From: a virus
Length of the DNA: 47,717 nt
UHGV virus genome: UHGV-0097968
Strand: one strand, 5' to 3'
Below are positions 11,624 through 47,292 of the stretch, piece by piece; position 1 is the first letter of the stretch; each line of letters starts with the position of its first letter. Under the pieces are notes generated by a model. It saw only the letters and a program-made list of their open reading frames with translations. It ran no database searches and was not told where the DNA came from. Both the position numbers and the translations under genes were made by a program.

Positions 11624-12775
11624 ATGGCATGGACTGGATTTGGTGGTCAATGGAATAACGGTGTGCATTCTGGCGGTGATGATTCTGGCAGTATAGGCGG
11701 TGGGGGCATAAAACTTGACGGCAAAGGGAATCCTGTAGGTACTCGTGCGCCGACTGCTGAGGAGATCGCATCACAATGGAATAGCTTTGGAGGTAGTCAG
11801 ATTAAACCCAGTGATGTATCGAACATCAGACCGGATGGTGAAGGTACTTATCAGGCTAACATTGCAGGTAATTACCACGTTGTAAGTTCGCAGGGCGCGA
11901 ATACCCCATTTGCTTCGGAACGTAGCAACGTTGCGGCAGGTTTTAGTGGTGGTGTGGGACCAACGCCTGATGGAAGGGGTAACAATAGTGCACCCAGCAA
12001 TCCAAAGGCTGAGGCCGAGGCAAAGAAATGGATTGAAACAGTCAAGGCTGTTCGGGCTGGTAATATCCCCTACGGTTATGTTCTTAACGACGGCAAGGTA
12101 GGCGTAAACGTGCCTCAATATGTTGAACGCCGCAAAGGTCGTGGCGACACATATACCGTTCGGGGTAAAGATTTGTTTGTTGTTTCGCCTGAACTGACAA
12201 AAGCGTATCAGGATGGTCTTGCGGAACGTGCTGAGATTCTGGACGCCGTCAAATTTACGTCTGATTTCTATAAAGACCTTGCAGGTAAATTTGGACAGCA
12301 TAACGCGAACATCGCAAAGGAACTGGCGGAGGCTGCAAAAGGCAAGAAGATTCGTAACAGCAAAGATGCACTGGCGGCGGTGGATAAATTTAATAACCGA
12401 CTGAGTAAAAAGTATGGAGCCAAAGACCTTGAGGCAGTTGCCAGGGCTTTGGAATCGGTTAACCGGGATGCAATGGCGAAGAATTTGTCTAAATTTGGTA
12501 AGGCATTTGGTGTCGCAAGTTATGCTGTCGATGCTTACAATGTTCTTTACATTGAATTTCCGAAAGCTATTCGTACCAAAAACTATCGCCCAATGCTTGT
12601 TAAGTTGGAGGCAATTCTTCTTGGTGCTGATGCTGGTATTGTTGCTGCGTGGGCATTTAGTGCGCTTCTGGCAACGCCGATGGGTATTCTGACGTTTGCG
12701 CTTATAATGGCATTGCTAAGTGCGATGATTAATGAAAAACGCATTGAGGAACTGAATAAGTTCTTAGGGATTTAA
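11624..12775 (+). CDS. Colicin E1-family pore-forming bacteriocin (short, 383 aa; Gly-rich N-terminal domain, C-terminal channel-forming domain)
   Basis: Gly-rich N-terminus MAWTGFGGQWNNGVHSGGDDSGSIGGGG; C-terminal domain with GKKIRN, KFGKAFGVAS, RTKNYRPMLVKLEAILLGADAGIVAAWAFSALLATPMGILTFALIMALLSAMINEKRIEELNKFLGI (hydrophobic hairpin and terminal NKFxGI) matching my recollection of colicin E1/Ia-type pore domains; SOS box in promoter; GAAGGAAG RBS. Confidence 0.85.
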   Translation: MAWTGFGGQWNNGVHSGGDDSGSIGGGGIKLDGKGNPVGTRAPTAEEIASQWNSFGGSQIKPSDVSNIRPDGEGTYQANIAGNYHVVSSQGANTPFASERSNVAAGFSGGVGPTPDGRGNNSAPSNPKAEAEAKKWIETVKAVRAGNIPYGYVLNDGKVGVNVPQYVERRKGRGDTYTVRGKDLFVVSPELTKAYQDGLAERAEILDAVKFTSDFYKDLAGKFGQHNANIAKELAEAAKGKKIRNSKDALAAVDKFNNRLSKKYGAKDLEAVARALESVNRDAMAKNLSKFGKAFGVASYAVDAYNVLYIEFPKAIRTKNYRPMLVKLEAILLGADAGIVAAWAFSALLATPMGILTFALIMALLSAMINEKRIEELNKFLGI

Positions 12776-12795: not shown

Positions 12796-12818
12796 GGCCA
12801 CGTCATGTGGCCTTTTTT
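12796..12818 (+). terminator. Rho-independent terminator after the colicin-like gene
   Basis: Stem GGCCAC/GTGGCC, loop GTCAT, then T6; the immunity gene stop codon lies inside the loop on the other strand. Confidence 0.6.
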
Positions 12819-13147
12819 GACAATTGAATATAAATAATAGACAGGAGGCCAATGGGAATGGAAAAAATAAAAAGAATACCGTGGTATAAACCCATTACCC
12901 CGCTTTTTAAACAGGTGTCTGTCCACGCTCCTGTTACCCATGATTCGGATGTTGTATATTTGAGGACGATGTTTTCTACAGCTTTTTTTGCATATGGGAA
13001 CAAGAAACAACTAATAACAGAAAGCATAACCAAATAATCCCATATCCACAAATCGCCTTCAGCTATGGCCTGATGCCACCTGAAAACCGTCATGCCGAGA
13101 AATACGCATCCGTACAGGATGTTGCTCAAATAATATCGAAATGTCAT
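12803..13147 (-). CDS. Colicin E1-type immunity protein (3-TM inner-membrane protein), convergent with toxin gene
   Basis: 114 aa; MTFRYYLSNILYG..., FPYAKKAVENI..., SIPIGLLSIIYI resemble ImmE1 (MSLRYYIKNILFG..., CPYSKYAIEYI..., AIPFGLLGLF) by recollection; three hydrophobic segments; opposite-strand arrangement typical of pore-former immunity genes. Confidence 0.8.
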   Translation of the reverse strand: MTFRYYLSNILYGCVFLGMTVFRWHQAIAEGDLWIWDYLVMLSVISCFLFPYAKKAVENIVLKYTTSESWVTGAWTDTCLKSGVMGLYHGILFIFSIPIGLLSIIYIQLSKKAT

Positions 13148-14687: not shown

Positions 14688-15611
14688 TTATTGGTTTCTG
14701 AGGAAAGCGATTCTTGAAAGGGTCATTTGCGTCTGGCAGTCGAGCATTTTCTTGACTTCAGCATCTGTTCCCTGCATTGAAACTTTACCGCACATAGCAT
14801 CCTTAGTTTTGATCCACTGACGCTGAGAAGGCAGCAAATCTTTTTTCTTCGCCGGGGTTAACTTGCTCCAGACGGTACTCAAATCAGAGTCGGCATTCGC
14901 AAATGCCATTCGGGACTGATCAAGGCTGTCAGCTTTTTGTGGCTGAAGTTGTGCCTGTCTCTCTATTTGCTTCTCCGCCTCATACTTAGCCTGTTCCTGC
15001 GCCCTGAGTTGCACCTGTTGTTCCGCTTCAATTTGGCTCTGTTGGGCATCCTTAGCCTGCTGGATTTTCTGCTGCTCAACGATCGGGTTGATAATAGAAA
15101 GTGATGTCAGTAAAGCGGCGCCCACTGATATCGGATTATCAGAAGAGGTTTTTACAAAAACGTTTTTCTGATCGTCGGTCGCCTGCACGGTGTAGGTGAT
15201 ACGTTTGGAAAAGGCGTTTGCGTTGTTCTCCAAAAACAGGCTTTCCATTTGCTTGTCGAGATTACGATTAAAATTCTTTCTGTAAGCATCTGAAAGCTGG
15301 ACGTACTCGTTCGCAGGTAGAGTCATCGTCACGGTCCCTTCACAAGTTTTCATTGTGCTGCCCGTGTCACTTGATGTTGTGGAGATTTCAGAGACGGCTA
15401 GTTTGATCTTGTCCAGTGTGCTTCGTTTGGTCTGATTAGTGACATCAGGGTATTTATCGACCTGTTCAGAGAGTCCTTCATAAGCAGATTTTTTTAATAA
15501 ATCCATGAGAGCTGATTGGGTCATTTCCGAAGAACAACCGATCTCATCTTTTTTGTTATCACAGCCTGTAAGGGCAATGGCGAGTAAGAGTACTGAGTAT
15601 TTTAATCTCAT
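14688..15611 (-). CDS. Lipoprotein with C-terminal DUF1311/LprI-like domain
   Basis: 307 aa; signal peptide with lipobox LTGC; Gln-rich coiled-coil middle; C-terminal motif WSKLTPAKKKDLLPSQRQWIKTKDAMC...C typical of DUF1311 by recollection. Confidence 0.75.
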   Translation of the reverse strand: MRLKYSVLLLAIALTGCDNKKDEIGCSSEMTQSALMDLLKKSAYEGLSEQVDKYPDVTNQTKRSTLDKIKLAVSEISTTSSDTGSTMKTCEGTVTMTLPANEYVQLSDAYRKNFNRNLDKQMESLFLENNANAFSKRITYTVQATDDQKNVFVKTSSDNPISVGAALLTSLSIINPIVEQQKIQQAKDAQQSQIEAEQQVQLRAQEQAKYEAEKQIERQAQLQPQKADSLDQSRMAFANADSDLSTVWSKLTPAKKKDLLPSQRQWIKTKDAMCGKVSMQGTDAEVKKMLDCQTQMTLSRIAFLRNQ

Positions 15612-16639: not shown

Positions 16640-17305
16640 ATGAAAGCCGACAACTTAAGAATTATAGAGAATGGCAAATATGTTTTCGATATGTTCTTGG
16701 ATACTGGTGAATTTTACTATACAAGTCATGCCTTTGACACGAGAGAAGATGCAAAAAGCTGGATGGAAGAATGGCAGATTTGGGCAAATAATGTATCGAG
16801 TGGGAAAGTAAGTAGTATTTATTATATTTTACAAGTGCCTGATACTTGGGCCGGTTCTTCAGATAAAAATAACCCTTACTCGGGACTTTATGTGAAAATA
16901 GGGCGTTCCAATAATGTGCTAAAAAGGTTGTCTAACCTGCAGACAGGTGCATTTGGTCAATTAATATTACACGCTTTGGAACCTGGTGGTTCAGAAAAAG
17001 AAAACTATCTTCATGAAAAATTTAGCAACGAAAGACGTCAAGGTGAATGGTTTGTTTGTACTAAGGAACTTACCAAGCATATATTTACAACATGGTTTAA
17101 AAACAAAATGCTCCCACCAGAACATCAAATAAAAATAATGCAGCTCGCAGAAAGAATAGGTATTTATTCGCATGTTCATACACTAATGGGGGGGAAGCCA
17201 GACTTAGTAAACCCATCTATTAGTGAACCTTGGGAATGCGAAAAATATGTTTTGGTTGATATGATTTATAGCTCTTTAGCAAAGCAAGTTAATCATAAAA
17301 AATAA
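16640..17305 (+). CDS. T5orf172 (GIY-YIG-like) domain protein with unassigned N-terminal domain
   Basis: 221 aa; GLYVKIGRSNNVLKRLSNLQTG ... ENYLHEKFSNERRQGEWF matches the T5orf172/MUG113 signature (KIG..., LQTG, LH..F...R..GEWF) by recollection; AT-rich region. Confidence 0.7.
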   Translation: MKADNLRIIENGKYVFDMFLDTGEFYYTSHAFDTREDAKSWMEEWQIWANNVSSGKVSSIYYILQVPDTWAGSSDKNNPYSGLYVKIGRSNNVLKRLSNLQTGAFGQLILHALEPGGSEKENYLHEKFSNERRQGEWFVCTKELTKHIFTTWFKNKMLPPEHQIKIMQLAERIGIYSHVHTLMGGKPDLVNPSISEPWECEKYVLVDMIYSSLAKQVNHKK

Positions 17306-18754: not shown

Positions 18755-19243
18755 TTACCCCAACCTCAAGTTCTTTAAACGATAAGTCATCGCATCGTCA
18801 GATACGCCAAAATGATGCGCCATTATATAACTTGGTTGGCCGTCAGCGTGCAGTTTTCTGACCTCATCTACCGGCATCAGAAGTTCTGCTGCGAACTTGT
18901 TCGCAAAAATTTCATCAGGATGCGTTCCGGCGCTTGCGGTTTCGCCACGTAAATCAACGTACTCATATTCATCGCTATGCGATGCTTGCCGGGCGATGTA
19001 ATGCCCCAACTCATGCCCACATGAAAAACGTTGACGAACTTTGTTGTCATCACTGTTTAGAAAGATCGCTGGATCTTGATCTTTTTGTTTAATCAGTGCG
19101 CCAGAAACTTTCCCAGGAAGATCGGTAATAAAAACATCTAATCCCATGTCGTGAGCAATTTTCGCTGGATCAACAGGGAAACCACGCCCGCACCAGAACG
19201 TGTCCAGCACTCGCCGGGCGTGCTCTCTTGGGTTGGTAGCCAT
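18755..19243 (-). CDS. ImmA/IrrE-family zinc metallopeptidase (COG2856-like)
   Basis: 162 aa; HEXXH motif in RQRFSCGHELGHYIA; downstream EIFANKFAAELLMPVDEV and FGVSDDAMTYRLKNL typical of ImmA/IrrE. Confidence 0.8.
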   Translation of the reverse strand: MATNPREHARRVLDTFWCGRGFPVDPAKIAHDMGLDVFITDLPGKVSGALIKQKDQDPAIFLNSDDNKVRQRFSCGHELGHYIARQASHSDEYEYVDLRGETASAGTHPDEIFANKFAAELLMPVDEVRKLHADGQPSYIMAHHFGVSDDAMTYRLKNLRLG

Positions 19244-35750: not shown

Positions 35751-36283
35751 GCGGACTGGATGCATTTGACGAATATCTTGATCGCGTTAAAGGCGCGGTT
35801 TTACAAATACCGTTCATCAAAACATTCGGAATTTATCCGGAAATTCCGGCTGGATTTGAAACGCCAGCTCTGTTCCTGGAAATCAGCAACTGGTCACAGA
35901 GTGACGAATCGGTTCCAGGCTCAATTCAGTCAGTCGAGCTGTCGTGTAATTTGTATTTGCTGCGTGAATTTGCAGCTGATCAGTACGGACTTAAATCGCA
36001 GAATGCAGCGCTCTATATGACGAGCTGGATTAATGGGCGAATGTTTGGTGCCGGAACTAAACCAGCAAAATTCAGCGACGCGGAACCGTGTGACTGGATT
36101 AAAAACGGGCAGTCAGTCGGTTCGCATTCAGTTCAGTGCGTGTCGTTCACGCAGGTTGTAGGCGTTGGTCCAGATATTTTCGATTATCCCTCACAGGGAA
36201 CCCTGAAAAATATATACGTCGGAATAGCGCCAGATATCGGCGCAGAACACGAGAGCGACTACTATGGCCCAATCGGACGATGA
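35747..36283 (+). CDS. Phage structural/morphogenesis protein, unassigned (possible tail completion)
   Basis: 178-aa ORF with overlapping start/stop coupling. Confidence 0.5.
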   Translation: MSGLDAFDEYLDRVKGAVLQIPFIKTFGIYPEIPAGFETPALFLEISNWSQSDESVPGSIQSVELSCNLYLLREFAADQYGLKSQNAALYMTSWINGRMFGAGTKPAKFSDAEPCDWIKNGQSVGSHSVQCVSFTQVVGVGPDIFDYPSQGTLKNIYVGIAPDIGAEHESDYYGPIGR

Positions 36284-37166
36284 ATATGCCGCAGCGGAGA
36301 ACGCGCGTCGGCTGCGTGACGCAGTTAAACGCGGCACGATAGCTGCAGTTCAGATGAATCCTCCAAGATGTCGCGTGTCGTTTGGTGGAGAACACCAATC
36401 GGGCTGGCTACAATGGTTCACGCACGCGACATCGGAGCGCGTGGACTGGAGCGCCCCATCTGTTGGCGACCCAGTCACTGTTGTTTCTGAGGGGGGAGAT
36501 ACGCGAAATGGCGTCGTCATGCTCGGATTACATATTGACAACAAAGCACCGCCCAGTACTGACCCTCACGACCACGTCACCGTATATTGTGACGGCGCAA
36601 CGCTAACCTATAACACAGAAAACCACACTCTCATCTGGCAAGGAGTACCAGAAGGAATTGTAAAAATTCTCGGCGAATCCAAAATAGAAATTTTGGGTCG
36701 CGCAGAAGTTACGGTCACAAGTGAAAACGTTGTCAATATTCACGGCGGAAAATTAATTAACGCAGACGCTGACGTTATTAACGTGACAGCGACAGATACA
36801 ATTAACGCGCACGCTGATTTAGTGAACGTAATAGCAACAAGTTCAGTAAGTGTTACCGCCGCGAATAGTATATCGCTGACGGCAGAAACAATAAGAGCAT
36901 TAGCGCCCGGCGGGATAACGCTAGCAGGTCCAACGCATATAACAGAAACGCTGGTTGTTGATAAACTGGCGACATTCCGCAACGATATTTCTGTCACTGG
37001 AGATAACGGTGGAACAGGTAATATCACAACTCGCGGTAGTGTGTTAGCAGGGCAAGAGGTGCAGGACCGACAAGGCACAATGACTGAGGTCCGCACAACG
37101 TACAACGGACACACTCACACATGTCCTGATGGGGAAACACAACAACCGAACCAACCAATGGCGTAA
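36264..37166 (+). CDS. Baseplate assembly/spike protein, P2 gpV-like
   Basis: 300 aa; N-terminal CRVSFGGEHQSGWLQWFTHA...WSAPSVGDPV matches P2 V by recollection; repetitive beta-helix-like middle. Confidence 0.8.
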   Translation: MAQSDDEYAAAENARRLRDAVKRGTIAAVQMNPPRCRVSFGGEHQSGWLQWFTHATSERVDWSAPSVGDPVTVVSEGGDTRNGVVMLGLHIDNKAPPSTDPHDHVTVYCDGATLTYNTENHTLIWQGVPEGIVKILGESKIEILGRAEVTVTSENVVNIHGGKLINADADVINVTATDTINAHADLVNVIATSSVSVTAANSISLTAETIRALAPGGITLAGPTHITETLVVDKLATFRNDISVTGDNGGTGNITTRGSVLAGQEVQDRQGTMTEVRTTYNGHTHTCPDGETQQPNQPMA

Positions 37167-37168
37167 AT

Positions 37169-37510
37169 ATGCTTGGAATGGACCGTAACACCGGTAAGCC
37201 TTTATCGGGGACTGATCACATTCGTCAGTCTATCGTTGATATTTTAACGACCCCGCTGGGGACGCGTGTAATGTTGCCGGAATATGGCAGCAAATTATTT
37301 GATCTTGTTGATAATCCCACAGATCCGTCGCTTGCTATGCGAATAATCATGGAAAGCGCTGGCGCAATAGCTCGCTGGGAACCACGCGTCAGAATTGACA
37401 GAATAAATGTGTTAGCAGTGGATGTCGGGAAAATAACAATATTAATTATCGCAACAGATATCGAAACACAACAGCGATTAGAGTTTAATAATATGGAGCT
37501 GATATTTTGA
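37169..37510 (+). CDS. Baseplate protein, P2 gpW-like (GPW/gp25 family)
   Basis: 113 aa; HIRQSIVDILTTPLGTRVMLPEYGSKL...WEPRV parallels P2 W. Confidence 0.8.
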   Translation: MLGMDRNTGKPLSGTDHIRQSIVDILTTPLGTRVMLPEYGSKLFDLVDNPTDPSLAMRIIMESAGAIARWEPRVRIDRINVLAVDVGKITILIIATDIETQQRLEFNNMELIF

Positions 37511-38427
37511 TAACATCAACAGTTCAGAATTCGATAGTGAAAACTATTGATATGAGTCTGCTGCCGCCGCCCGCGTTTGTTAAAACCCCGCTATTTTCAG
37601 ATGTTAAATCTAATCTATTGTCAGAGCTGCAGATATTATATCCACAATTTAACGCACTCCTGGAGTCAGACCCGGCCGTTAAACTGCTGGAAATAGTTGC
37701 ATACAGAGAAATTATCATTACAGCGCGGGTAAATCAGGGGATGCTCGCGGTATTACTCGCGTTTGCAAAAGAGTGGGACCTCGACCAGATTGGCGCTAAT
37801 TTTGACTGCCTGCGGCTGTTGATAACGCCAGCTAATCGTGATGCGATTCCCCCGACTGAGGCGGTTTACGAGAGTGACGACGAGTATCGTCATCGCATAC
37901 AGCTATCGTGGTACGCGCGGAATACTGCCGGCAGTACAAACGCGTATAACTATTTCGCGCTATCGAGTGATCCCGACGTTCTGTCAGCTCAGGCATACGG
38001 ACCGCCGGTGACACAACCAGGGTACGTCGATATGTACGTTTTGTCCCGAACCGGCGACGGTGTACCTCCGCAATCACTACTGAATACAGTGAATGCGGCT
38101 CTGTCTCCTGACGATACTCGACCGCTGACTGATTTCGTGACTGTAAAACCTGCGTCGAACCTGAATTACCGGGTTGAGGCCGTTATCGTAGCCGGGCTTG
38201 GACCCGACCAGAACGTTTTGCTTAACGGTGCTCAGAGCGATTTGGCGATATATGTGGATACGCAGCATAAAATCGGAGCGACGGCAGCTCTGTCAGGAAT
38301 TTACGACGCGATACATCGTGACGGCACTGAACGTGTGATTCTGATATCGCCAACAGAGGACGTGATTGCTGGCGTCGGACAGGCTCCGCACTGCACTGAA
38401 ATTAAACTCAGCGTGCAAATGGGGTAG
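37507..38427 (+). CDS. Baseplate protein, P2 gpJ-like
   Basis: 306 aa; motifs LDQIGANF, YESDDEYRHRIQLS, RPLTDFVTV parallel P2 J. Confidence 0.85.
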   Translation: MITSTVQNSIVKTIDMSLLPPPAFVKTPLFSDVKSNLLSELQILYPQFNALLESDPAVKLLEIVAYREIIITARVNQGMLAVLLAFAKEWDLDQIGANFDCLRLLITPANRDAIPPTEAVYESDDEYRHRIQLSWYARNTAGSTNAYNYFALSSDPDVLSAQAYGPPVTQPGYVDMYVLSRTGDGVPPQSLLNTVNAALSPDDTRPLTDFVTVKPASNLNYRVEAVIVAGLGPDQNVLLNGAQSDLAIYVDTQHKIGATAALSGIYDAIHRDGTERVILISPTEDVIAGVGQAPHCTEIKLSVQMG

Positions 38428-38429
38428 CT

Positions 38430-39056
38430 ATGGCAAGTCAAAGTGTGCTGCCTCCGAACGCAATAACTCCCGAGAGGGCGCTTGAGGTTGTTTTATCTCA
38501 CGTCGGAGATCTGCCTGGCGATATTCGAATTATTAAAAATCCCGATTTGTGCCCTGCAAATCTGTTGCCGTGGCTGGCGTGGGAGTACGCGGTCACCTAC
38601 TGGAACCCCGACTGGAGTGAGCAGCAAAAACGCGAAATTATTAAGGCCGCAGCCTGGCAAAATAAACATCGCGGCACGCGTGGTGCCGTCGAACGAGCAT
38701 TATTAACGGTGGGATTTGAGAGCAAAATGAGAGAGTGGTTTGAAGCCACGCCCAGGGACGACCCGTATACATTCGCAATTAAAATATATCTGCTAAAAAG
38801 TATAGGGTTAGATTTAGAGCTATTGAATACCTTTATTGCACAAATATTTGATGCAAAAAATTGCCGTTCCTTATTAAAAGAAATAAATTTTGAAACGGGT
38901 GTCGATGGTGAGTTTTTTATAGCTGGTGCACCTTACGCGAAAATAGGCGTAAATATCCCAGCAGACGGCGACGGCGGTGTAAAAATTAACGGCGGGCTAT
39001 ATATATCAGGCTCGCCAATTGTTAGTTTAAATGTGGAGATAGGGCCAAATGGCTGA
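38430..39056 (+). CDS. Tail protein, P2 gpI-like
   Basis: 208 aa; LLPWLAWEYAV...W...KHRGTRGAV parallels P2 I. Confidence 0.8.
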   Translation: MASQSVLPPNAITPERALEVVLSHVGDLPGDIRIIKNPDLCPANLLPWLAWEYAVTYWNPDWSEQQKREIIKAAAWQNKHRGTRGAVERALLTVGFESKMREWFEATPRDDPYTFAIKIYLLKSIGLDLELLNTFIAQIFDAKNCRSLLKEINFETGVDGEFFIAGAPYAKIGVNIPADGDGGVKINGGLYISGSPIVSLNVEIGPNG

Positions 39057-40227
39057 AAATAAAATTTACGCAGTACTGACAGACCGGGGGGCACAACTTG
39101 AGGCCGCGGCATTAGCATCAGGTGTGCCGGTAGTACTGAATAAATTCGTTATTGGTGACGCGAACGGAAACGACGACGTAACACCGGACCCGTCACGAAC
39201 AGTATTAATTCACGAAACGTATCGCGGAGATATTAAATCGTCAGAAAATAGCGGCAATCAGGTTATTTTTACACTGTACGTACCACCGGAAACCGGCGGT
39301 TATACTATTCGAGAGGTTGGAATATTAACAGATAAAGGCGAGCTGTACTCTGTAGCACGCTCGCCGGATATTTTAAAACCCACGGACAGCAACGGCGCGC
39401 TGATTTCAATCACATATAAATACACTCTCGCGGTGTCCAGCGCGTCTACTGTTAACGTTGTCATTGATAACAGTAGTGGAATGAGCCAGGCAGATGCAGA
39501 TAAGCGTTATTTGCAGATAAGCAAAAATTTATCTGAAATTAAAGATAAGGGCGCGGCGGCGCAACAAGCTGGGCGAGAAAATCTCGGCGTTAACTTAAAT
39601 AACTATTATAAAAAAGAAGAGATAGATAATAAATTTTCAGAAGTGGATAATGAGTTAAATAATATAAACCCAGTCATGACGGTTAACCATTTACAGCCTG
39701 ATTCTGACGGCAACGTTAATGTGGATTCGGGATACGCAAAACTGGGCGGCGACGGGGCATTTAATTTAGTTGCTCTGTTTCCGCAGCAATCTGAACCTGA
39801 CGCGACAAATAAAACCATGCCTGGTTACCGGCTTTCTTCTGTGATATTTAAAGCGAATCCCAGCCTTGAAATTTTGGCTCATGGATATTTATTTGGATTG
39901 TGGGAATTAATTGCCATTCCGTTAGTGACAGTATCTAGCGGATACGAACTGAATGGCGGTGTTTCTGGTGCTGTAATGGCTCGGCGAATTCCTGTTGGCA
40001 ATATAAACAAATTCAGCAATATAAAAAACCCTCATTATCCTCAGGGCCGTGGCGTGGTGGGAACGTATGAAACTGCCTACATAAACATTGAATGCGATAT
40101 TGAGGGAGTTGGAACCGGACTAATATTCACGACAAATAATAATGATGTTGAGGAATACGGTCGTCAATTATATCAAAACGCAATAAGCGGTATGTACGGC
40201 ACAGTAACAAACGGTTATCAAAGTTGA
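39049..40227 (+). CDS. Tail fibre protein, P2 gpH-like N-terminus with divergent AT-rich C-terminal part
   Basis: 392 aa; N-terminal VIGDANG...LIHETYRGDI...GGYTIREVGIL matches P2 H anchor domain by recollection; C-terminal region compositionally different. Confidence 0.75.
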   Translation: MAENKIYAVLTDRGAQLEAAALASGVPVVLNKFVIGDANGNDDVTPDPSRTVLIHETYRGDIKSSENSGNQVIFTLYVPPETGGYTIREVGILTDKGELYSVARSPDILKPTDSNGALISITYKYTLAVSSASTVNVVIDNSSGMSQADADKRYLQISKNLSEIKDKGAAAQQAGRENLGVNLNNYYKKEEIDNKFSEVDNELNNINPVMTVNHLQPDSDGNVNVDSGYAKLGGDGAFNLVALFPQQSEPDATNKTMPGYRLSSVIFKANPSLEILAHGYLFGLWELIAIPLVTVSSGYELNGGVSGAVMARRIPVGNINKFSNIKNPHYPQGRGVVGTYETAYINIECDIEGVGTGLIFTTNNNDVEEYGRQLYQNAISGMYGTVTNGYQS

Positions 40228-40239
40228 TGGAGGTAATAA

Positions 40240-41739
40240 ATGAGCACTAATTTTTTGCACGGCCCCCGCACGCTCGAATACGACGACGGAACAAAAGAGA
40301 TCAGCACGGTCGATATTTCCGTTATCGGTATCGTCGGCACTGCCCCGGATGCGAGCGCCCCCACATGCGCATCACTACTATGGGGATCAGAACTCGCAGA
40401 TAATCTTGTTCAGTTTTCCACTGTCATGCCTGGGGCCGACGGAAACAACTGGATTGTCGAAATCGTCAATCTCGGTATTAACGGGAATGTGGCAACTCCG
40501 GGATACAGCACACTGCCCGACGGTTCGAGAAAATTAACAATGATCACGGACGGTGCCATGACTCCGTCAAAAATGTACGATCAGAACCAGCAGTATAAAG
40601 AAGGACTCCAGATTGGAGAATATATTAACGTCACATTCGGTGGTGATCACGCAGGAACGGGGACTGTATTCGCGCTCCCCCCAACAAATTTATCCGGTGG
40701 TAAAGACGAATCGTTCAAATATAATGTTCCGACGTTAATTGCAGGCAGTCAGAAAAAAGCTGGATTGCTCGGTGGGTCTGGTACGCTTCTTTCCGCTGTA
40801 TCTGAAATACTAAATCAGGAGGATGCCATTATTGTTGTTGTCCGCGTCGAAGAGGACAGCGACGAAACAAAAATGAGGCAGAACGTCGTTAACGGGATTA
40901 ACGCACTGTTGACGTCTGCACAAATAAATCAAGTGACGCCGAGAATTTTAATCGCTCCAGATTATAGTGCTAACGATTATATTGCAGAACAACTTGAAGT
41001 GGTGACAAATAAATTACGAGGTGTTGGATATATCGATTCACAGCGAGGCGCTACGCCTGCTGACGTTGTGAATCGTCGTCAGAGGTACGGCGGCAGGATG
41101 GAAATTTTACGCCCTCGCGTTTATTCTACGAGTGATGTCAGTGGGTTATCTCGTCCGTATTCAGCTATCGCTGCTGGTTTGCGAGCCAGAATTGATAATG
41201 AAAAAGGATTCTGGTGGAGTAAATCGAACCAGAATATCTACGGAGTTACAGGGCTTGAACAAGTCGACGATTTTATTATTGGTGAGACAAACTGCACAGC
41301 GAACCTGTTGAACGCCAGTCAGGTCAGCACAATTATTCGCTATGACGGGTTCCGGCACTGGGGTAACTATCTGTGTAGCCTCAGTCCCCAATGGTCCTTT
41401 GAATGCGTTCGTCGAACAGCTGACGTAATTGAGGATTCTATAGCCCGGGCAATGATGACCGATTTTATTGATCGTCCGATAGACCTGCACCTCGGAACAG
41501 ACGTTGTCGAGTCGATAAACGCATATCTGCACAAATTAGAGGAGCAGGGCGCGATTAACGGAGGGCGTGCGTGGTTAGACAGTGAGCTGAATACAAAAGA
41601 AAGCCTGGCTGCGGGGAATCTTTATATTAATGTCGATTTTGGCCCGAAATCTCCGGCACAAACAATTACGTTAATGTACCGCATTAATAATGACTATACA
41701 GTTGAAGCGCTGGCCTCCCTTTTTAAAGAAACAGCCTGA
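40240..41739 (+). CDS. Contractile tail sheath protein
   Basis: 499-aa ORF at sheath position of a P2/Mu-like tail module, followed by tube and chaperone genes. Confidence 0.85.
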   Translation: MSTNFLHGPRTLEYDDGTKEISTVDISVIGIVGTAPDASAPTCASLLWGSELADNLVQFSTVMPGADGNNWIVEIVNLGINGNVATPGYSTLPDGSRKLTMITDGAMTPSKMYDQNQQYKEGLQIGEYINVTFGGDHAGTGTVFALPPTNLSGGKDESFKYNVPTLIAGSQKKAGLLGGSGTLLSAVSEILNQEDAIIVVVRVEEDSDETKMRQNVVNGINALLTSAQINQVTPRILIAPDYSANDYIAEQLEVVTNKLRGVGYIDSQRGATPADVVNRRQRYGGRMEILRPRVYSTSDVSGLSRPYSAIAAGLRARIDNEKGFWWSKSNQNIYGVTGLEQVDDFIIGETNCTANLLNASQVSTIIRYDGFRHWGNYLCSLSPQWSFECVRRTADVIEDSIARAMMTDFIDRPIDLHLGTDVVESINAYLHKLEEQGAINGGRAWLDSELNTKESLAAGNLYINVDFGPKSPAQTITLMYRINNDYTVEALASLFKETA

Positions 41740-41756
41740 TAATTCGGAGAGTAAAT

Positions 41757-42269
41757 ATGTCAGATAGCAACGCTTACCGCGCGTTTGCGCTATTCGTGCA
41801 AGGTGAACGGGTTTTAAATTGTACTGAATATACTCCTGTTGATATGAAAATAATCGAAGACGAGTTTAAAACTGGCGCAATGGATACAGCCATCACTCTG
41901 GATGGGGGGATGGAGAAAATGTCAGCCAGTTTTAAAGTTTCAGGTTCTGATTCTGGTGTTATGAGTTATTTCGGGTTAATACCGGGAGTTAAGACGCGGT
42001 TTGAAATTCGTAGTGCGTACACAGACTCCTACGGAATAAATTTTGAGCGTATTGATACCTACGAGGGGCTTATTACGGCAATCACTGATGATGCTCAGGG
42101 GACTGATTCAAAATCGTCAGTGGGGCAATCAGTAACAATTGCGCCGAGCTATTATAAACGAGTTCAAAACGGACGAGTTATTTACGAAATTCATCCTGCA
42201 AAAATGAAACGCGTTATCAACGGTGTTGATGTTCTTGCGGGCGTCGCTCGAATCCTTCATGTATATTAA
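41757..42269 (+). CDS. Tail tube protein
   Basis: 170-aa ORF directly after sheath. Confidence 0.8.
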   Translation: MSDSNAYRAFALFVQGERVLNCTEYTPVDMKIIEDEFKTGAMDTAITLDGGMEKMSASFKVSGSDSGVMSYFGLIPGVKTRFEIRSAYTDSYGINFERIDTYEGLITAITDDAQGTDSKSSVGQSVTIAPSYYKRVQNGRVIYEIHPAKMKRVINGVDVLAGVARILHVY

Positions 42270-42281
42270 AAGGTAAGTAAA

Positions 42282-42563
42282 ATGGAATCCTTATTAGACA
42301 GTATGACTATTACGCTCTCTCGACCGTTTATTATTAAGGGCGAGAGCTGCGATACAATTACTATTCGCGAACCAAAATTACGTGACCGCATTATGTTCAG
42401 TAACGATAAAAGCGGTCTTGAAGAGCGGACAGCGACAATGCTGGCGCGCCTGGCAAATCTGGAGAGAGAGGATTTATATGCGCTCCCCGCGTGCGATTAC
42501 GATCAACTGGAGGCCGCGTTTAACGAACTGGTAAAGCACCCGAAAGACCGACATCAGATATAG
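42282..42563 (+). CDS. Tail assembly chaperone (P2 gpE-like); a -1 frame extension is open to 42694
   Basis: 93-aa ORF before tape measure; the -1 frame is open from 42524 through 42694 and overlaps the tape measure start, as in P2 E/E+E' and lambda G/GT. Confidence 0.6.
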   Translation: MESLLDSMTITLSRPFIIKGESCDTITIREPKLRDRIMFSNDKSGLEERTATMLARLANLEREDLYALPACDYDQLEAAFNELVKHPKDRHQI

Positions 42564-42671
42564 TTATTCTGATTCCGTTTATTGCGAAAAAACTTGCCAT
42601 CCCGCCTGATACGCAAATGGACCTGCCGTATCGGGTTTTTAATTTCTATGTAGACGAGGTCATGAAAACTG

Positions 42672-44312
42672 ATGGCTATTTCTCAAAACTTTAAAACGCA
42701 GGTTGTATTCGGGGGGCGAATAGACCCGTCGTTTCGGCGCGGTACAACAGAACTCAACGATGCAATTCGGCAGACGTCGTCTACTGTCGGAAAATTAACG
42801 AAAAGTCAGGATAAATTAAAAGACAAAATCGCAGCAATGAAACTGGCAGGTAAAGACGTTTCTGATTTATCTGCTCAGTATCAAAAGCTGGACCGTCGAA
42901 TAAAAGCGACAACGCAGGACCAGGAGGCACTGAATACTCAGCTTGCTAAAAAACAACGGCTGGAGAAGTGGACGGGTCGCGCAAAAGGGGCTGCAAAATG
43001 GGGCGGTCGAGCGACTGCAAGAACGATAAAGGCAACAGGAAAAGGCATCAAATGGGGGACGCTTGGCGCGGCAGGTCTCATTGGTGGCGCTGCTGCTGGC
43101 GCGCTGGCAATGAACGCAGAGACGTCAGAAAAACTCGGTCTGGCGAAGTCATACGGTGTTGGCGTTGAAAAATATGCTGCGTGGGAAAATATTGGTAAAG
43201 CCGCGGGCCTGAACGGCGAAAATATCGGGGATTTGTCTGAAGAACTTACAAATAAAATCGGCGAAATCGGAAACGAAAAAAATCTGAATCCCATGTTGTT
43301 TCAAATCGGCCTGACGAAAAAACGAATGGCTGGCTGGGATCGGGAAAAGCAGTTTAATGAAGTTATGCGTCGCATCTCTGAAATGAAAGATGAGAAGCAA
43401 GCGGCGAGCCTCGCTGACCAGCTCATGGGGGGCGAGGCTAATAAGATCATGACGTATATGAAGGCGACGGGTAAAAGCTGGGAACAGACAATGTCTGACG
43501 CGCAAAAGTCGAATTTGTTAACAAAAGAGGGTGCGGAAGGGGCGGCGCGTGCGCATGTATCTGTAACAAATTTGTGGGGATCGATAACGTCAGGACTTGC
43601 AGATACACTTGGTAAAATTGGGGGTGAGCTCGCGCCGACGTTTGACTCAGTTCGCGAAACATTTACAGCATGGTTTAAGGACAATCAGGGCGGATTTGTC
43701 AGCACAATTACTGAGTGGGTAAAGCCCGAAAGCATGAAAAAAATGTGGGAGGGGATAGTCAGTTTTGGCGAAGCTTGCGTTAAATTCGGAAAAATAATTT
43801 GGGCAGTAGCAAAAAGACTTGAGTGGTTAATTCCGGACGAGAAAACAGACGAGGAACAGCGCGTATATAACGAAGAATATAATAAGGCGTATCAGGAATT
43901 CATGGATAGTGGTGGTAAATATTCACCGAATCCAGGACTGGCAGCAGATAATGTAGCAAAAGCAAAAGCCGACGAAGCCGTAGATAATATGCGACACCCT
44001 GAGCGTCTTGCGCGTGCAAAATCACAGGCTGAATCAATGCTCTCATTTGTTAACCCGTTTACTGGATTAATAAATAAAGACTCAACGCCTAAATCACAAA
44101 ACTCAGCAACGTTGAATATTGACGCGCTGAGACAGGCAGTCGCAACTCCAGCTCCAGAGCAAAACAATAAAATTGAAATCAATATTATCGGAGCAGCAGA
44201 CCCACAATCAACACAGCAGGCCGCTGCATCGGGTGTGCTCGACGGGCTGAGACAAGTTGCGAGTTCGTACAATCGTGGCGCGATGTTTGATAAACCAGCG
44301 GCGGCGGGGTGA
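42672..44312 (+). CDS. Tail tape measure protein
   Basis: 546-aa Ala/Gly/Lys-rich ORF with coiled-coil character downstream of chaperone. Confidence 0.85.
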   Translation: MAISQNFKTQVVFGGRIDPSFRRGTTELNDAIRQTSSTVGKLTKSQDKLKDKIAAMKLAGKDVSDLSAQYQKLDRRIKATTQDQEALNTQLAKKQRLEKWTGRAKGAAKWGGRATARTIKATGKGIKWGTLGAAGLIGGAAAGALAMNAETSEKLGLAKSYGVGVEKYAAWENIGKAAGLNGENIGDLSEELTNKIGEIGNEKNLNPMLFQIGLTKKRMAGWDREKQFNEVMRRISEMKDEKQAASLADQLMGGEANKIMTYMKATGKSWEQTMSDAQKSNLLTKEGAEGAARAHVSVTNLWGSITSGLADTLGKIGGELAPTFDSVRETFTAWFKDNQGGFVSTITEWVKPESMKKMWEGIVSFGEACVKFGKIIWAVAKRLEWLIPDEKTDEEQRVYNEEYNKAYQEFMDSGGKYSPNPGLAADNVAKAKADEAVDNMRHPERLARAKSQAESMLSFVNPFTGLINKDSTPKSQNSATLNIDALRQAVATPAPEQNNKIEINIIGAADPQSTQQAAASGVLDGLRQVASSYNRGAMFDKPAAAG

Positions 44313-46234: not shown

Positions 46235-46400
46235 ATTGGCTCGGCGAGCCGGTGGCGGGTATGAATTTAGTATTAACGACTGTCGACTGCAAACGGCACC
46301 TGCGATATTTTTAGGCGTAAGCCGGAGAACGAAGAGTCTCTGGTGCTGAACGTTGTTATCGTTAGATCCTGACATTTTTTAATATTGGGAGTTTTCAAAC

Positions 46401-47041: not shown

Positions 47042-47166
47042 ATTTAAAATCCCTCGGCGTTCGCGCTGTGCGGGTTCAAGTCCCGCTCCGGGTACCATGG
47101 GAAAGATAAGAATAAAATCAAAGCAATAAGCAGTGTCGTGAAACCACCTTCGGGTGGTTTTTTTGT
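47042..47166. repeat. attR: right copy of the 125-bp direct repeat (3' fragment of tRNA-Leu plus terminator)
   Basis: Identical by eye to 399-523; contains only the 3' 56 nt of the tRNA (47042-47097) plus the terminator hairpin. Confidence 0.85.
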
Positions 47167-47292
47167 GCCTGCAACTTGTCGTTACACCCTCCTTAATTTT
47201 TAATCACCAGCAAAGCCACTCAAAAAGTATCTCTGATACGGACCGGCATGTAAGATAGGTGCTGGCGAGTTGAGATCCACAAGGAAAATCGT

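Follow-up and report, generated by a model that had tools for sequence, protein, structure and literature searches.

How does a P2-type tail fibre fold and assemble when no chaperone gene follows it? This question is raised by the tail-fibre gene at 39049..40227 (+) of the UHGV virus genome UHGV-0097968, a stretch of 47,717 nucleotides (nt) that is referred to here as the window and represents an Escherichia coli prophage integrated beside tRNA-Gly/Cys/Leu. The gene terminates with a TGA stop codon (40225-40227), encodes 392 amino acids (aa) and matches phrog_5075 over its full length. A first-pass annotation, made from the sequence alone, had assigned a P2 H-type baseplate anchor to the N-terminus, and this was confirmed by the Pfam family PF12571 (Phage_tail_fib), which matched aa 4-143 (39058..39477, +; P2 gpH/tail-collar type) with an E-value of 1.3e-31 and 110 bits versus a cut-off of 23. 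By its anchor domain and gene position the protein qualifies as a P2 gpH-type fibre, but it lacks a downstream gpG/Tfa gene. In known Tfa proteins a variable N-domain binds the fibre tip, while a conserved C-domain (DUF4376/Caudo_TAP) mediates multimerisation or trimerisation (PMC9608196, PMC7882524, PMC11990801). Tfa-fibre complexes can be 3:3 and Tfa may remain on the virion (PMC9608196, PMC7882524, PMC10579305, PMC11990801). Sequence comparison indicates that the window fibre carries a Tfa-type N-domain in cis, that the Tfa C-domain was lost, and that the junction lies at the start codon of the stand-alone proteins.

The decisive comparison was that with sister prophages, represented by phage vB_EcoM-720R5 (ON470604), in which a 129-aa open reading frame (ORF) is located between the fibre and the sheath gene. 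Residues 318-387 of the window fibre are 40% identical to aa 3-65 of this ORF (E 5e-15). The corresponding C-terminal domain (aa 317-392; 39997..40224, +) shares 57% identity with the first part of P0003 (132 aa), whose gene separates the fibre and sheath genes in a further prophage of this type, and is recognised by a hidden Markov model (HMM) of the family with an E-value of 4e-20. At the junction, the split form reads '...SLMQRVA*' (also cited as 'MQRVA*/MNINCFSNIKNP') followed by 'MNINCFSNIKNPVY', and the fused form of the window reads 'MARRIPVGNINKFSNIKNP' / '...AVMARRIPVGNINKFSNIKNPHY'. The start methionine of the stand-alone proteins aligns with G317 of the fibre (alignment A2; L020). 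The statement of the first-pass annotation that there is no adjacent chaperone gene is literally correct. Nevertheless, the fibre is not chaperone-free, because its last approximately 76 residues are homologous to the chaperone N-domain of the sister prophages. An ordinary swapped, self-folding receptor-binding domain without any chaperone-related element would explain the missing separate gene and the failure of Pfam (E <= 1) and NCBIfam to detect anything in aa 184-392 of the fibre; the 129-aa ORF of the sister prophages gave no match to these databases either. Such a domain is hardly compatible with the significant homology of aa 317-392 to N-domains of Pfam-verified assembly proteins in exact start-codon register, and we attach very little weight to it. 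Self-folding of the fibre, as suggested earlier, is plausible from the sequence since part of a chaperone is carried in cis.

Word-indexed searches for homologues of the domain returned just a handful of proteins, and the only tblastn matches among 50,697 phage genomes were four vB_EcoM records. An exhaustive search with a profile against 1.84 billion representative proteins was needed, which delivered 355 hits. Apart from 11 clusters of full-length fibres described below, most of the other listed hits were 63-250 aa long and shared the domain alone, always at the N-terminus. Pfam analysis of 134 stand-alone proteins revealed Caudo_TAP in 14, Phage_tail_APC in 14 and DUF4376 in five of them. 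All 33 chaperone-domain matches were located C-terminal to the shared domain, and nothing else meaningful was detected in the 134 proteins. Furthermore, Mu U was matched by the family profile in its conserved C-domain (hhalign probability 74%, E 3e-5; HMM E 1e-6), and a local HMM picked up Mu U and U' via the same conserved C-terminal region. In the hhalign comparison with Mu U/U', alignment of the stand-alone family was confined to its C-terminal part, and its N-domain remained unmatched. On the window fibre, the family HMM covers model positions 8-70 alone, which belong to the N-domain. The fibre ends 8 aa past the G-x-YG motif of this domain, and the conserved C-terminal helical domain of Tfa proteins is absent. 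A sequence search of the PDB gave no meaningful match; the Mu fibre 8ju3 was hit at the NLSEI joint with a non-significant E-value of 0.3.

How the fused gene relates to the two-gene arrangement became visible in nucleotide comparisons. Among 5,426 complete E. coli genomes, megablast detected the tail module in 453; four deposited phages contain it, too. Window and ON470604 (locus L001) share about 91% nucleotide identity in the intervals 36000-39540 and 40238-43000 (blastn), with essentially no DNA similarity between 39540 and 40238. The left breakpoint (nt 39540) corresponds to aa 164 and falls inside the conserved joint YLQISKNLSEIK, annotated here as YLQISKNLSEIKDKGAAAQQAGRENLG at 39508..39588 (+; aa 154-180). 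In the sister prophage this region is occupied by a cassette of 1079 nt, which encodes another tip of a 394-aa fibre and, ahead of the sheath gene, the 129-aa ORF. The start codon of the ORF overlaps the stop codon of the fibre gene as TAATG, an arrangement of translational coupling. This common allele was found in approximately 428 complete E. coli genomes, the window allele in only four, all of which contain an intact ORF. At the protein level, the window and sister fibres share 82% identity over aa 1-190, and BLAST detects no relationship beyond that point. Profile comparison identified the fused and split heads as distant homologues (hhalign probability 93%, E 4e-7, window versus sister fibre head), which have the motifs PVxTVN..PD..GNV, G-G-A/T-F/Y-x-L and G-x-W-R in common. 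From the blastn breakpoints we conclude that a distal cassette of 697 nt (39541..40237, +) was exchanged and that the fibre is a mosaic at the sequence level.

The first-pass annotation had deduced a swapped, specificity-determining domain from a markedly AT-rich and Asn/Lys-rich distal half. The swap itself is supported by the breakpoints 39540/40238; composition, of which the shift was confirmed only weakly, provides no proof of it. The GC content of the cassette is 0.413 and lies below that of the flanks (0.472; z = -3.0), while the shift within the gene, measured against its 5' part (0.451), is not significant (z = -1.3). Among equal-sized windows the cassette ranks at the 8th percentile overall and at the 2nd percentile inside the structural module. 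A really low GC content of 0.34 is confined to positions 39500-39699. Asparagine is modestly elevated in the distal half (10.9% versus 7.4%). For lysine, the C-terminal half shows no enrichment (3.0%), and an elevated content is restricted to aa 144-190 (12.8%). As sister-prophage cassettes are similarly GC-poor (0.418 and 0.405) though unrelated, a low GC content appears to be a general property of the exchangeable region. Composition was rejected as proof of the exchange on account of the weak within-gene shift, and the comparative breakpoints were used instead.

A second, nested level of mosaicism was detected between the window (39541-39993) and the prophage of strain GF131 (L003). The synonymous substitution rate (dS) is 0.54 over aa 165-315, in contrast to 0.03 in the anchor and 0.04 in the C-terminal domain. 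Because anchor and C-terminal domain are nearly identical, the head alone must have been exchanged or have diverged. The segment of aa 165-315 comprises stalk and head and has a nonsynonymous substitution rate (dN) of 0.058, giving a dN/dS of 0.11. Within this segment, a short Lys/Glu/Asn-rich stalk (39598..39666, +; aa 184-206), predicted as helices with low confidence by AlphaFold2 (AF2), coincides with the GC minimum of the gene. It is followed by the motif PVxTVNxxxPDxxGNVN (39670..39723, +; aa 208-225), which is common to fused and split fibres in alignment A2. The presumed receptor-binding head (39736..39996, +; aa 230-316) is variable, rich in beta strands and ends in the conserved strand AVMARRIPV.

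The head also contains a CRISPR target. Positions 39854-39885 match, in 32 of 32 nt, a spacer in the type I-E array that E. coli carries beside queE/ygcF, found for example in strain CP53 (L019:1502-1533; CGAATCCC...CATGGA). The canonical protospacer adjacent motif (PAM) AAG precedes the protospacer in the window, so that PAM and protospacer together span 39851..39885 (+). About 55 of the 5,426 complete E. coli genomes possess the spacer. Three near-identical carriers of the prophage and GF131 gave the prophage match only and no spacer match, and the head allele of GF131 has eight mismatches at the protospacer. A spacer against the head, with the correct PAM, implies encounters with this DNA.

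Is the fused architecture an isolated event? The profile search uncovered 11 clusters of full-length fibres (P0011-P0021; 341-509 aa) with less than 50% identity between clusters, in which a head is followed by the domain at the extreme C-terminus. The number of further fused clusters is at least 11 at 50% identity; they have different anchors and derive from P2-like, Mu-like and other prophages. All 11 end 2-24 aa after the G-x-YG motif. Their common signature is a GDGAF...G-W-R...RIPxG head and then an NP...FTA..D.EEYGR.LY..A..G.YG domain at the C-terminus, and the window fibre fits it; phrog_5075 corresponds in part to this group. We inspected eight independent contexts of fused fibres, namely the window, P0012 from the same prophage family, P0018 from a more distant P2-like module, P0011, P0014, P0016 and the Mu-like P0019 and P0021. 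Neither an ORF with a Tfa C-domain nor a second copy of the N-domain was present in the fetched flanks. The positive controls of this flank search, the 129-aa ORF and Mu U/U', were detected. In the window, 613 six-frame ORFs were compared with the HMM of the stand-alone family, with 81 C-terminal parts of Tfa proteins and with Mu U/U'. The sole match was the C-terminus of the fibre itself, so that a chaperone gene elsewhere in the window, which the first-pass annotation had named as grounds for abandoning its reading, was not found. In the Mu-like prophages of P0019 and P0021 (L015-L018), gp45-gp48 are followed by the fused fibre and then directly by com/mom. As the fibre gene lies immediately before com/mom, these prophages lack U, the G segment and gin, and the fused cassette has replaced the whole Mu host-range switch as well.

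Two further fibres with related domains were noticed. The ETEC1738 prophage contains a second fibre gene (L008:46241-47188), which encodes a 'prophage tail fiber N-terminal domain' protein of 315 aa, follows the gene for gpD and likewise ends in the same Tfa-N-like domain (...IPFTAAADDVTDWGRKIFSDALAGLYG...). The window does not have this gene; the corresponding junction lies at about 46237-46263. P0030, a metagenomic/genomic protein of 511 aa, unites a lambda-stf-like N-terminal domain, collagen-like repeats and a head with the Tfa N-domain and an entire Caudo_TAP-like C-domain in a single chain. This complete fusion is a third state beside the split form and the fused form that contains only the N-domain.

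The recurrence of the architecture bears on whether the window fibre is functional at all. The gene might have decayed by a deletion that joined the fibre to a truncated chaperone in a defective prophage, leaving a protein without function; the rarity of the allele (4 of 5,426 complete E. coli genomes) and the broken terminase of the ETEC1738 prophage copy would agree with this. We consider such decay very improbable. The architecture is maintained in clusters of less than 50% identity and with different anchors, all four genomes retain an intact ORF, the window has an undamaged set of TerL, portal and tail genes, and a CRISPR spacer with the correct PAM is directed against the head. It was on grounds of conservation, namely at least 11 clusters and the dN/dS of 0.11 over aa 165-315, that the pseudogene explanation was rejected.

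What could the domain do in the fibre? In our opinion it probably serves as a cis-acting clamp or cap for assembly that replaces the separate chaperone. The tethered domain would take over in cis the role that the Tfa N-domain has in trans. By clamping the nascent head at 1:1 stoichiometry it would aid folding of the trimer from the C-terminal end, and it would probably remain on the mature tip as a cap. A separate chaperone gene would thus become unnecessary. Receptor specificity and host range would be set by the variable head rather than by the conserved C-terminal domain. AF2 modelled head and domain as one unit with a mean local confidence score (pLDDT) of 77 and a predicted template modelling score (pTM) of 0.72. 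The strands of the head mostly exceeded a pLDDT of 80, and the domain alone, with three strands and a helix, reached 83. A pTM of 0.72 for a monomer is only suggestive of fibre-tip binding or trimer folding by the domain. The best fold match in BFVD, a database of predicted viral structures, was a 'phage tail assembly chaperone protein'. Ranked below it were uncharacterised small phage proteins and several large tail fibres, which matched at their C-terminal ends.

The same domain might instead be mainly a permanent distal tip or adhesin that touches the receptor, in which case the fusion would hard-wire a tip protein and not an assembly aid. This is the main rival explanation, although it is compatible with a role in assembly and the two are not exclusive. 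TfaMu remains on the virion and possibly contacts lipopolysaccharide (PMC9608196, PMC10579305), many stand-alone homologues of only 63-100 aa consist of the domain without a chaperone C-domain, and the extreme C-terminus is the distal end of the fibre. The distribution of sequence variation points in the other direction: in 13 fused proteins conservation is highest in the C-terminal domain, at a mean pairwise identity of 49%, and the head is variable with 27%, the opposite of what would be expected if the domain formed the specificity surface. Moreover, the fibre sequence contains no glycine-rich adhesin motifs. On balance, we regard a primary role as tip or adhesin as unlikely.

Several findings count against an assembly clamp acting in cis. 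The conserved C-domain, which is thought to drive trimerisation, is missing, so that the mechanism cannot be identical to that of Tfa. About three quarters of the 134 stand-alone homologues have no chaperone domain recognised by Pfam. Foldseek searches of the PDB with the models of head plus domain and of the domain only gave nothing below E 0.5 (E > 0.9 for the domain), and no match to TfaMu (5YVQ) or Pam3 gp25 was obtained. As no solved structure resembles the domain, the label 'fibre-binding' derives only from its position in Tfa proteins. With just seven differing sites between window and GF131, the dN/dS of the domain is uninformative. Finally, the window represents 47.7 kb of a host genome, and this leads to another explanation, according to which the fibre still needs a trans-acting Tfa, or the missing C-domain function, from another prophage in the host chromosome. 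E. coli genomes commonly hold several tfa genes, and the fused protein lacks the trimerising Tfa C-domain. Against this, the window contains no Tfa-like ORF, and eight contexts in different phage types and hosts without a nearby Tfa are hard to square with an obligatory foreign helper. Dependence on such a helper is improbable to us, more so than a primary tip function.

The genes around the fibre support its assignment to a P2-like tail module. Homologues of gpV, gpW, gpJ and gpI are located directly upstream (36264-39056; Pfam hits and ORF map). The last of them, the gpI-type baseplate gene (38430..39056, +; PF09684 Tail_P2_I, E 4e-37), overlaps the start of the fibre gene by 8 nt. The next gene downstream encodes the tail sheath (40240..41739, +; PF04984 and PF17482), as the first-pass annotation had stated; it begins 12 nt past the fibre stop, is preceded by a GGAGG ribosome binding site and is followed by the tube gene. 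The absence of an invertible segment was also borne out. No inverted repeats longer than 15 nt surround the fibre gene, just two imperfect ones of 14-15 nt, and no invertase is annotated in a near-identical prophage. An invertible fibre segment of the Mu G, P1 C or e14 P type was rejected on these grounds.

Outside the tail module, a direct repeat of 126 nt was deduced at 399-524 and 47042-47167, as both stretches match L008:2298-2423. It includes the 3' part of tRNA-Leu. The two copies probably represent attL and attR and would then delimit a prophage of about 46.7 kb. An accessory region that is missing from the sister prophage in ETEC1738 contains a 383-aa ORF (11624-12775, +) with a colicin pore-forming domain (PF01024, aa 200-378, E 2e-45). 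Possible immunity genes are located on the opposite strand at 11771-12301 or 12803-13147. Between 16640 and 19243, further accessory genes missing from the sister prophage encode a T5orf172/MUG113-domain protein (16640-17305) and a Peptidase_M78/IrrE-like protein (18755-19243, minus strand). An LprI-domain protein is encoded at 14688-15611 on the minus strand.

Separate Tfa chaperones and intramolecular chaperones of the Peptidase_S74 type are already known. The fused fibres might constitute an unnamed class of self-chaperoning fibres, in which a Tfa N-domain was captured in cis, the supposedly essential trimerising C-domain was discarded, and repeated interconversion with the two-gene form took place at the stop/start junction. 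We put this forward tentatively and with less confidence than the clamp function itself. In the searchable literature we found no description of a fibre-fused Tfa N-domain with a discarded C-domain, though an earlier mention is possible. If the proposal is correct, tethering substitutes for the Tfa C-domain, and a family with a covalent fibre-binding module and a dispensable C-domain would be a natural experiment on the role of each Tfa domain. Tail-fibre chaperones pose a practical difficulty for exchanging receptor-binding proteins among phages, pyocins and delivery particles; the H-fibre of Campylobacter, for instance, is functional only together with its downstream chaperone (PMC7882524). 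Fused fibres would then be a source of single-gene specificity cassettes, naturally compact and independent of a separate chaperone, for P2-, Mu- and pyocin-type scaffolds. For annotation, a missing chaperone gene does not equal a missing chaperone. Neither Pfam nor NCBIfam has a model for the domain, and proteins containing it are presently labelled 'tail fiber protein', 'hypothetical protein' or 'unknown function'.

Among known systems, the sister prophages are closest to the window. They share the V-W-J-I-fibre-sheath module at about 91% nucleotide identity, the anchor, a distantly homologous head and the N-domain found in their 129-aa protein. In contrast to the single polypeptide of the window, their head and domain are encoded by two coupled genes, and the Tfa-like C-terminal helical part is retained. 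With Mu S/U and P2 H/G, the window shares the H-type anchor (P2), the NLSEI joint as exchange point and the logic of a tip-binding Tfa N-domain, and the stand-alone relatives of its domain have a conserved C-domain in common with Mu U. Unlike Mu and P2, it has no separate Tfa gene, conserved C-domain, invertible G segment or invertase, and the N-domain of TfaMu has no detectable similarity to the window domain in sequence or fold. The gp38 adhesins of T2 and S16 are also small proteins that are encoded downstream of the fibre and end up at its tip. They differ from the window domain, which is conserved and not hypervariable and lacks the glycine-rich motifs. The gp24-gp25 pair of cyanophage Pam3 (PMC9608196) resembles the window in its short, simplified fibre. 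Pam3 gp25 is a separate protein that is not found in virions and trimerises via C-terminal helices (PMC9608196), and a match of its fold to the window domain was not obtained. Its N-domains clamp one subunit each in a 3:3 complex, a stoichiometry that fits a covalent 1:1 fusion (PMC9608196). Fibres of the Peptidase_S74 type, such as the K1F endosialidase and the L-shaped fibre pb1 of T5, likewise carry a chaperone element at the extreme C-terminus and need no separate gene. The window fibre shows neither an S74 signature (Pfam E <= 1, PDB folds) nor a sign of autoproteolytic release, and the two differ in origin, since the domain of the window fibre derives from a Tfa N-domain and not from the S74 helical bundle.

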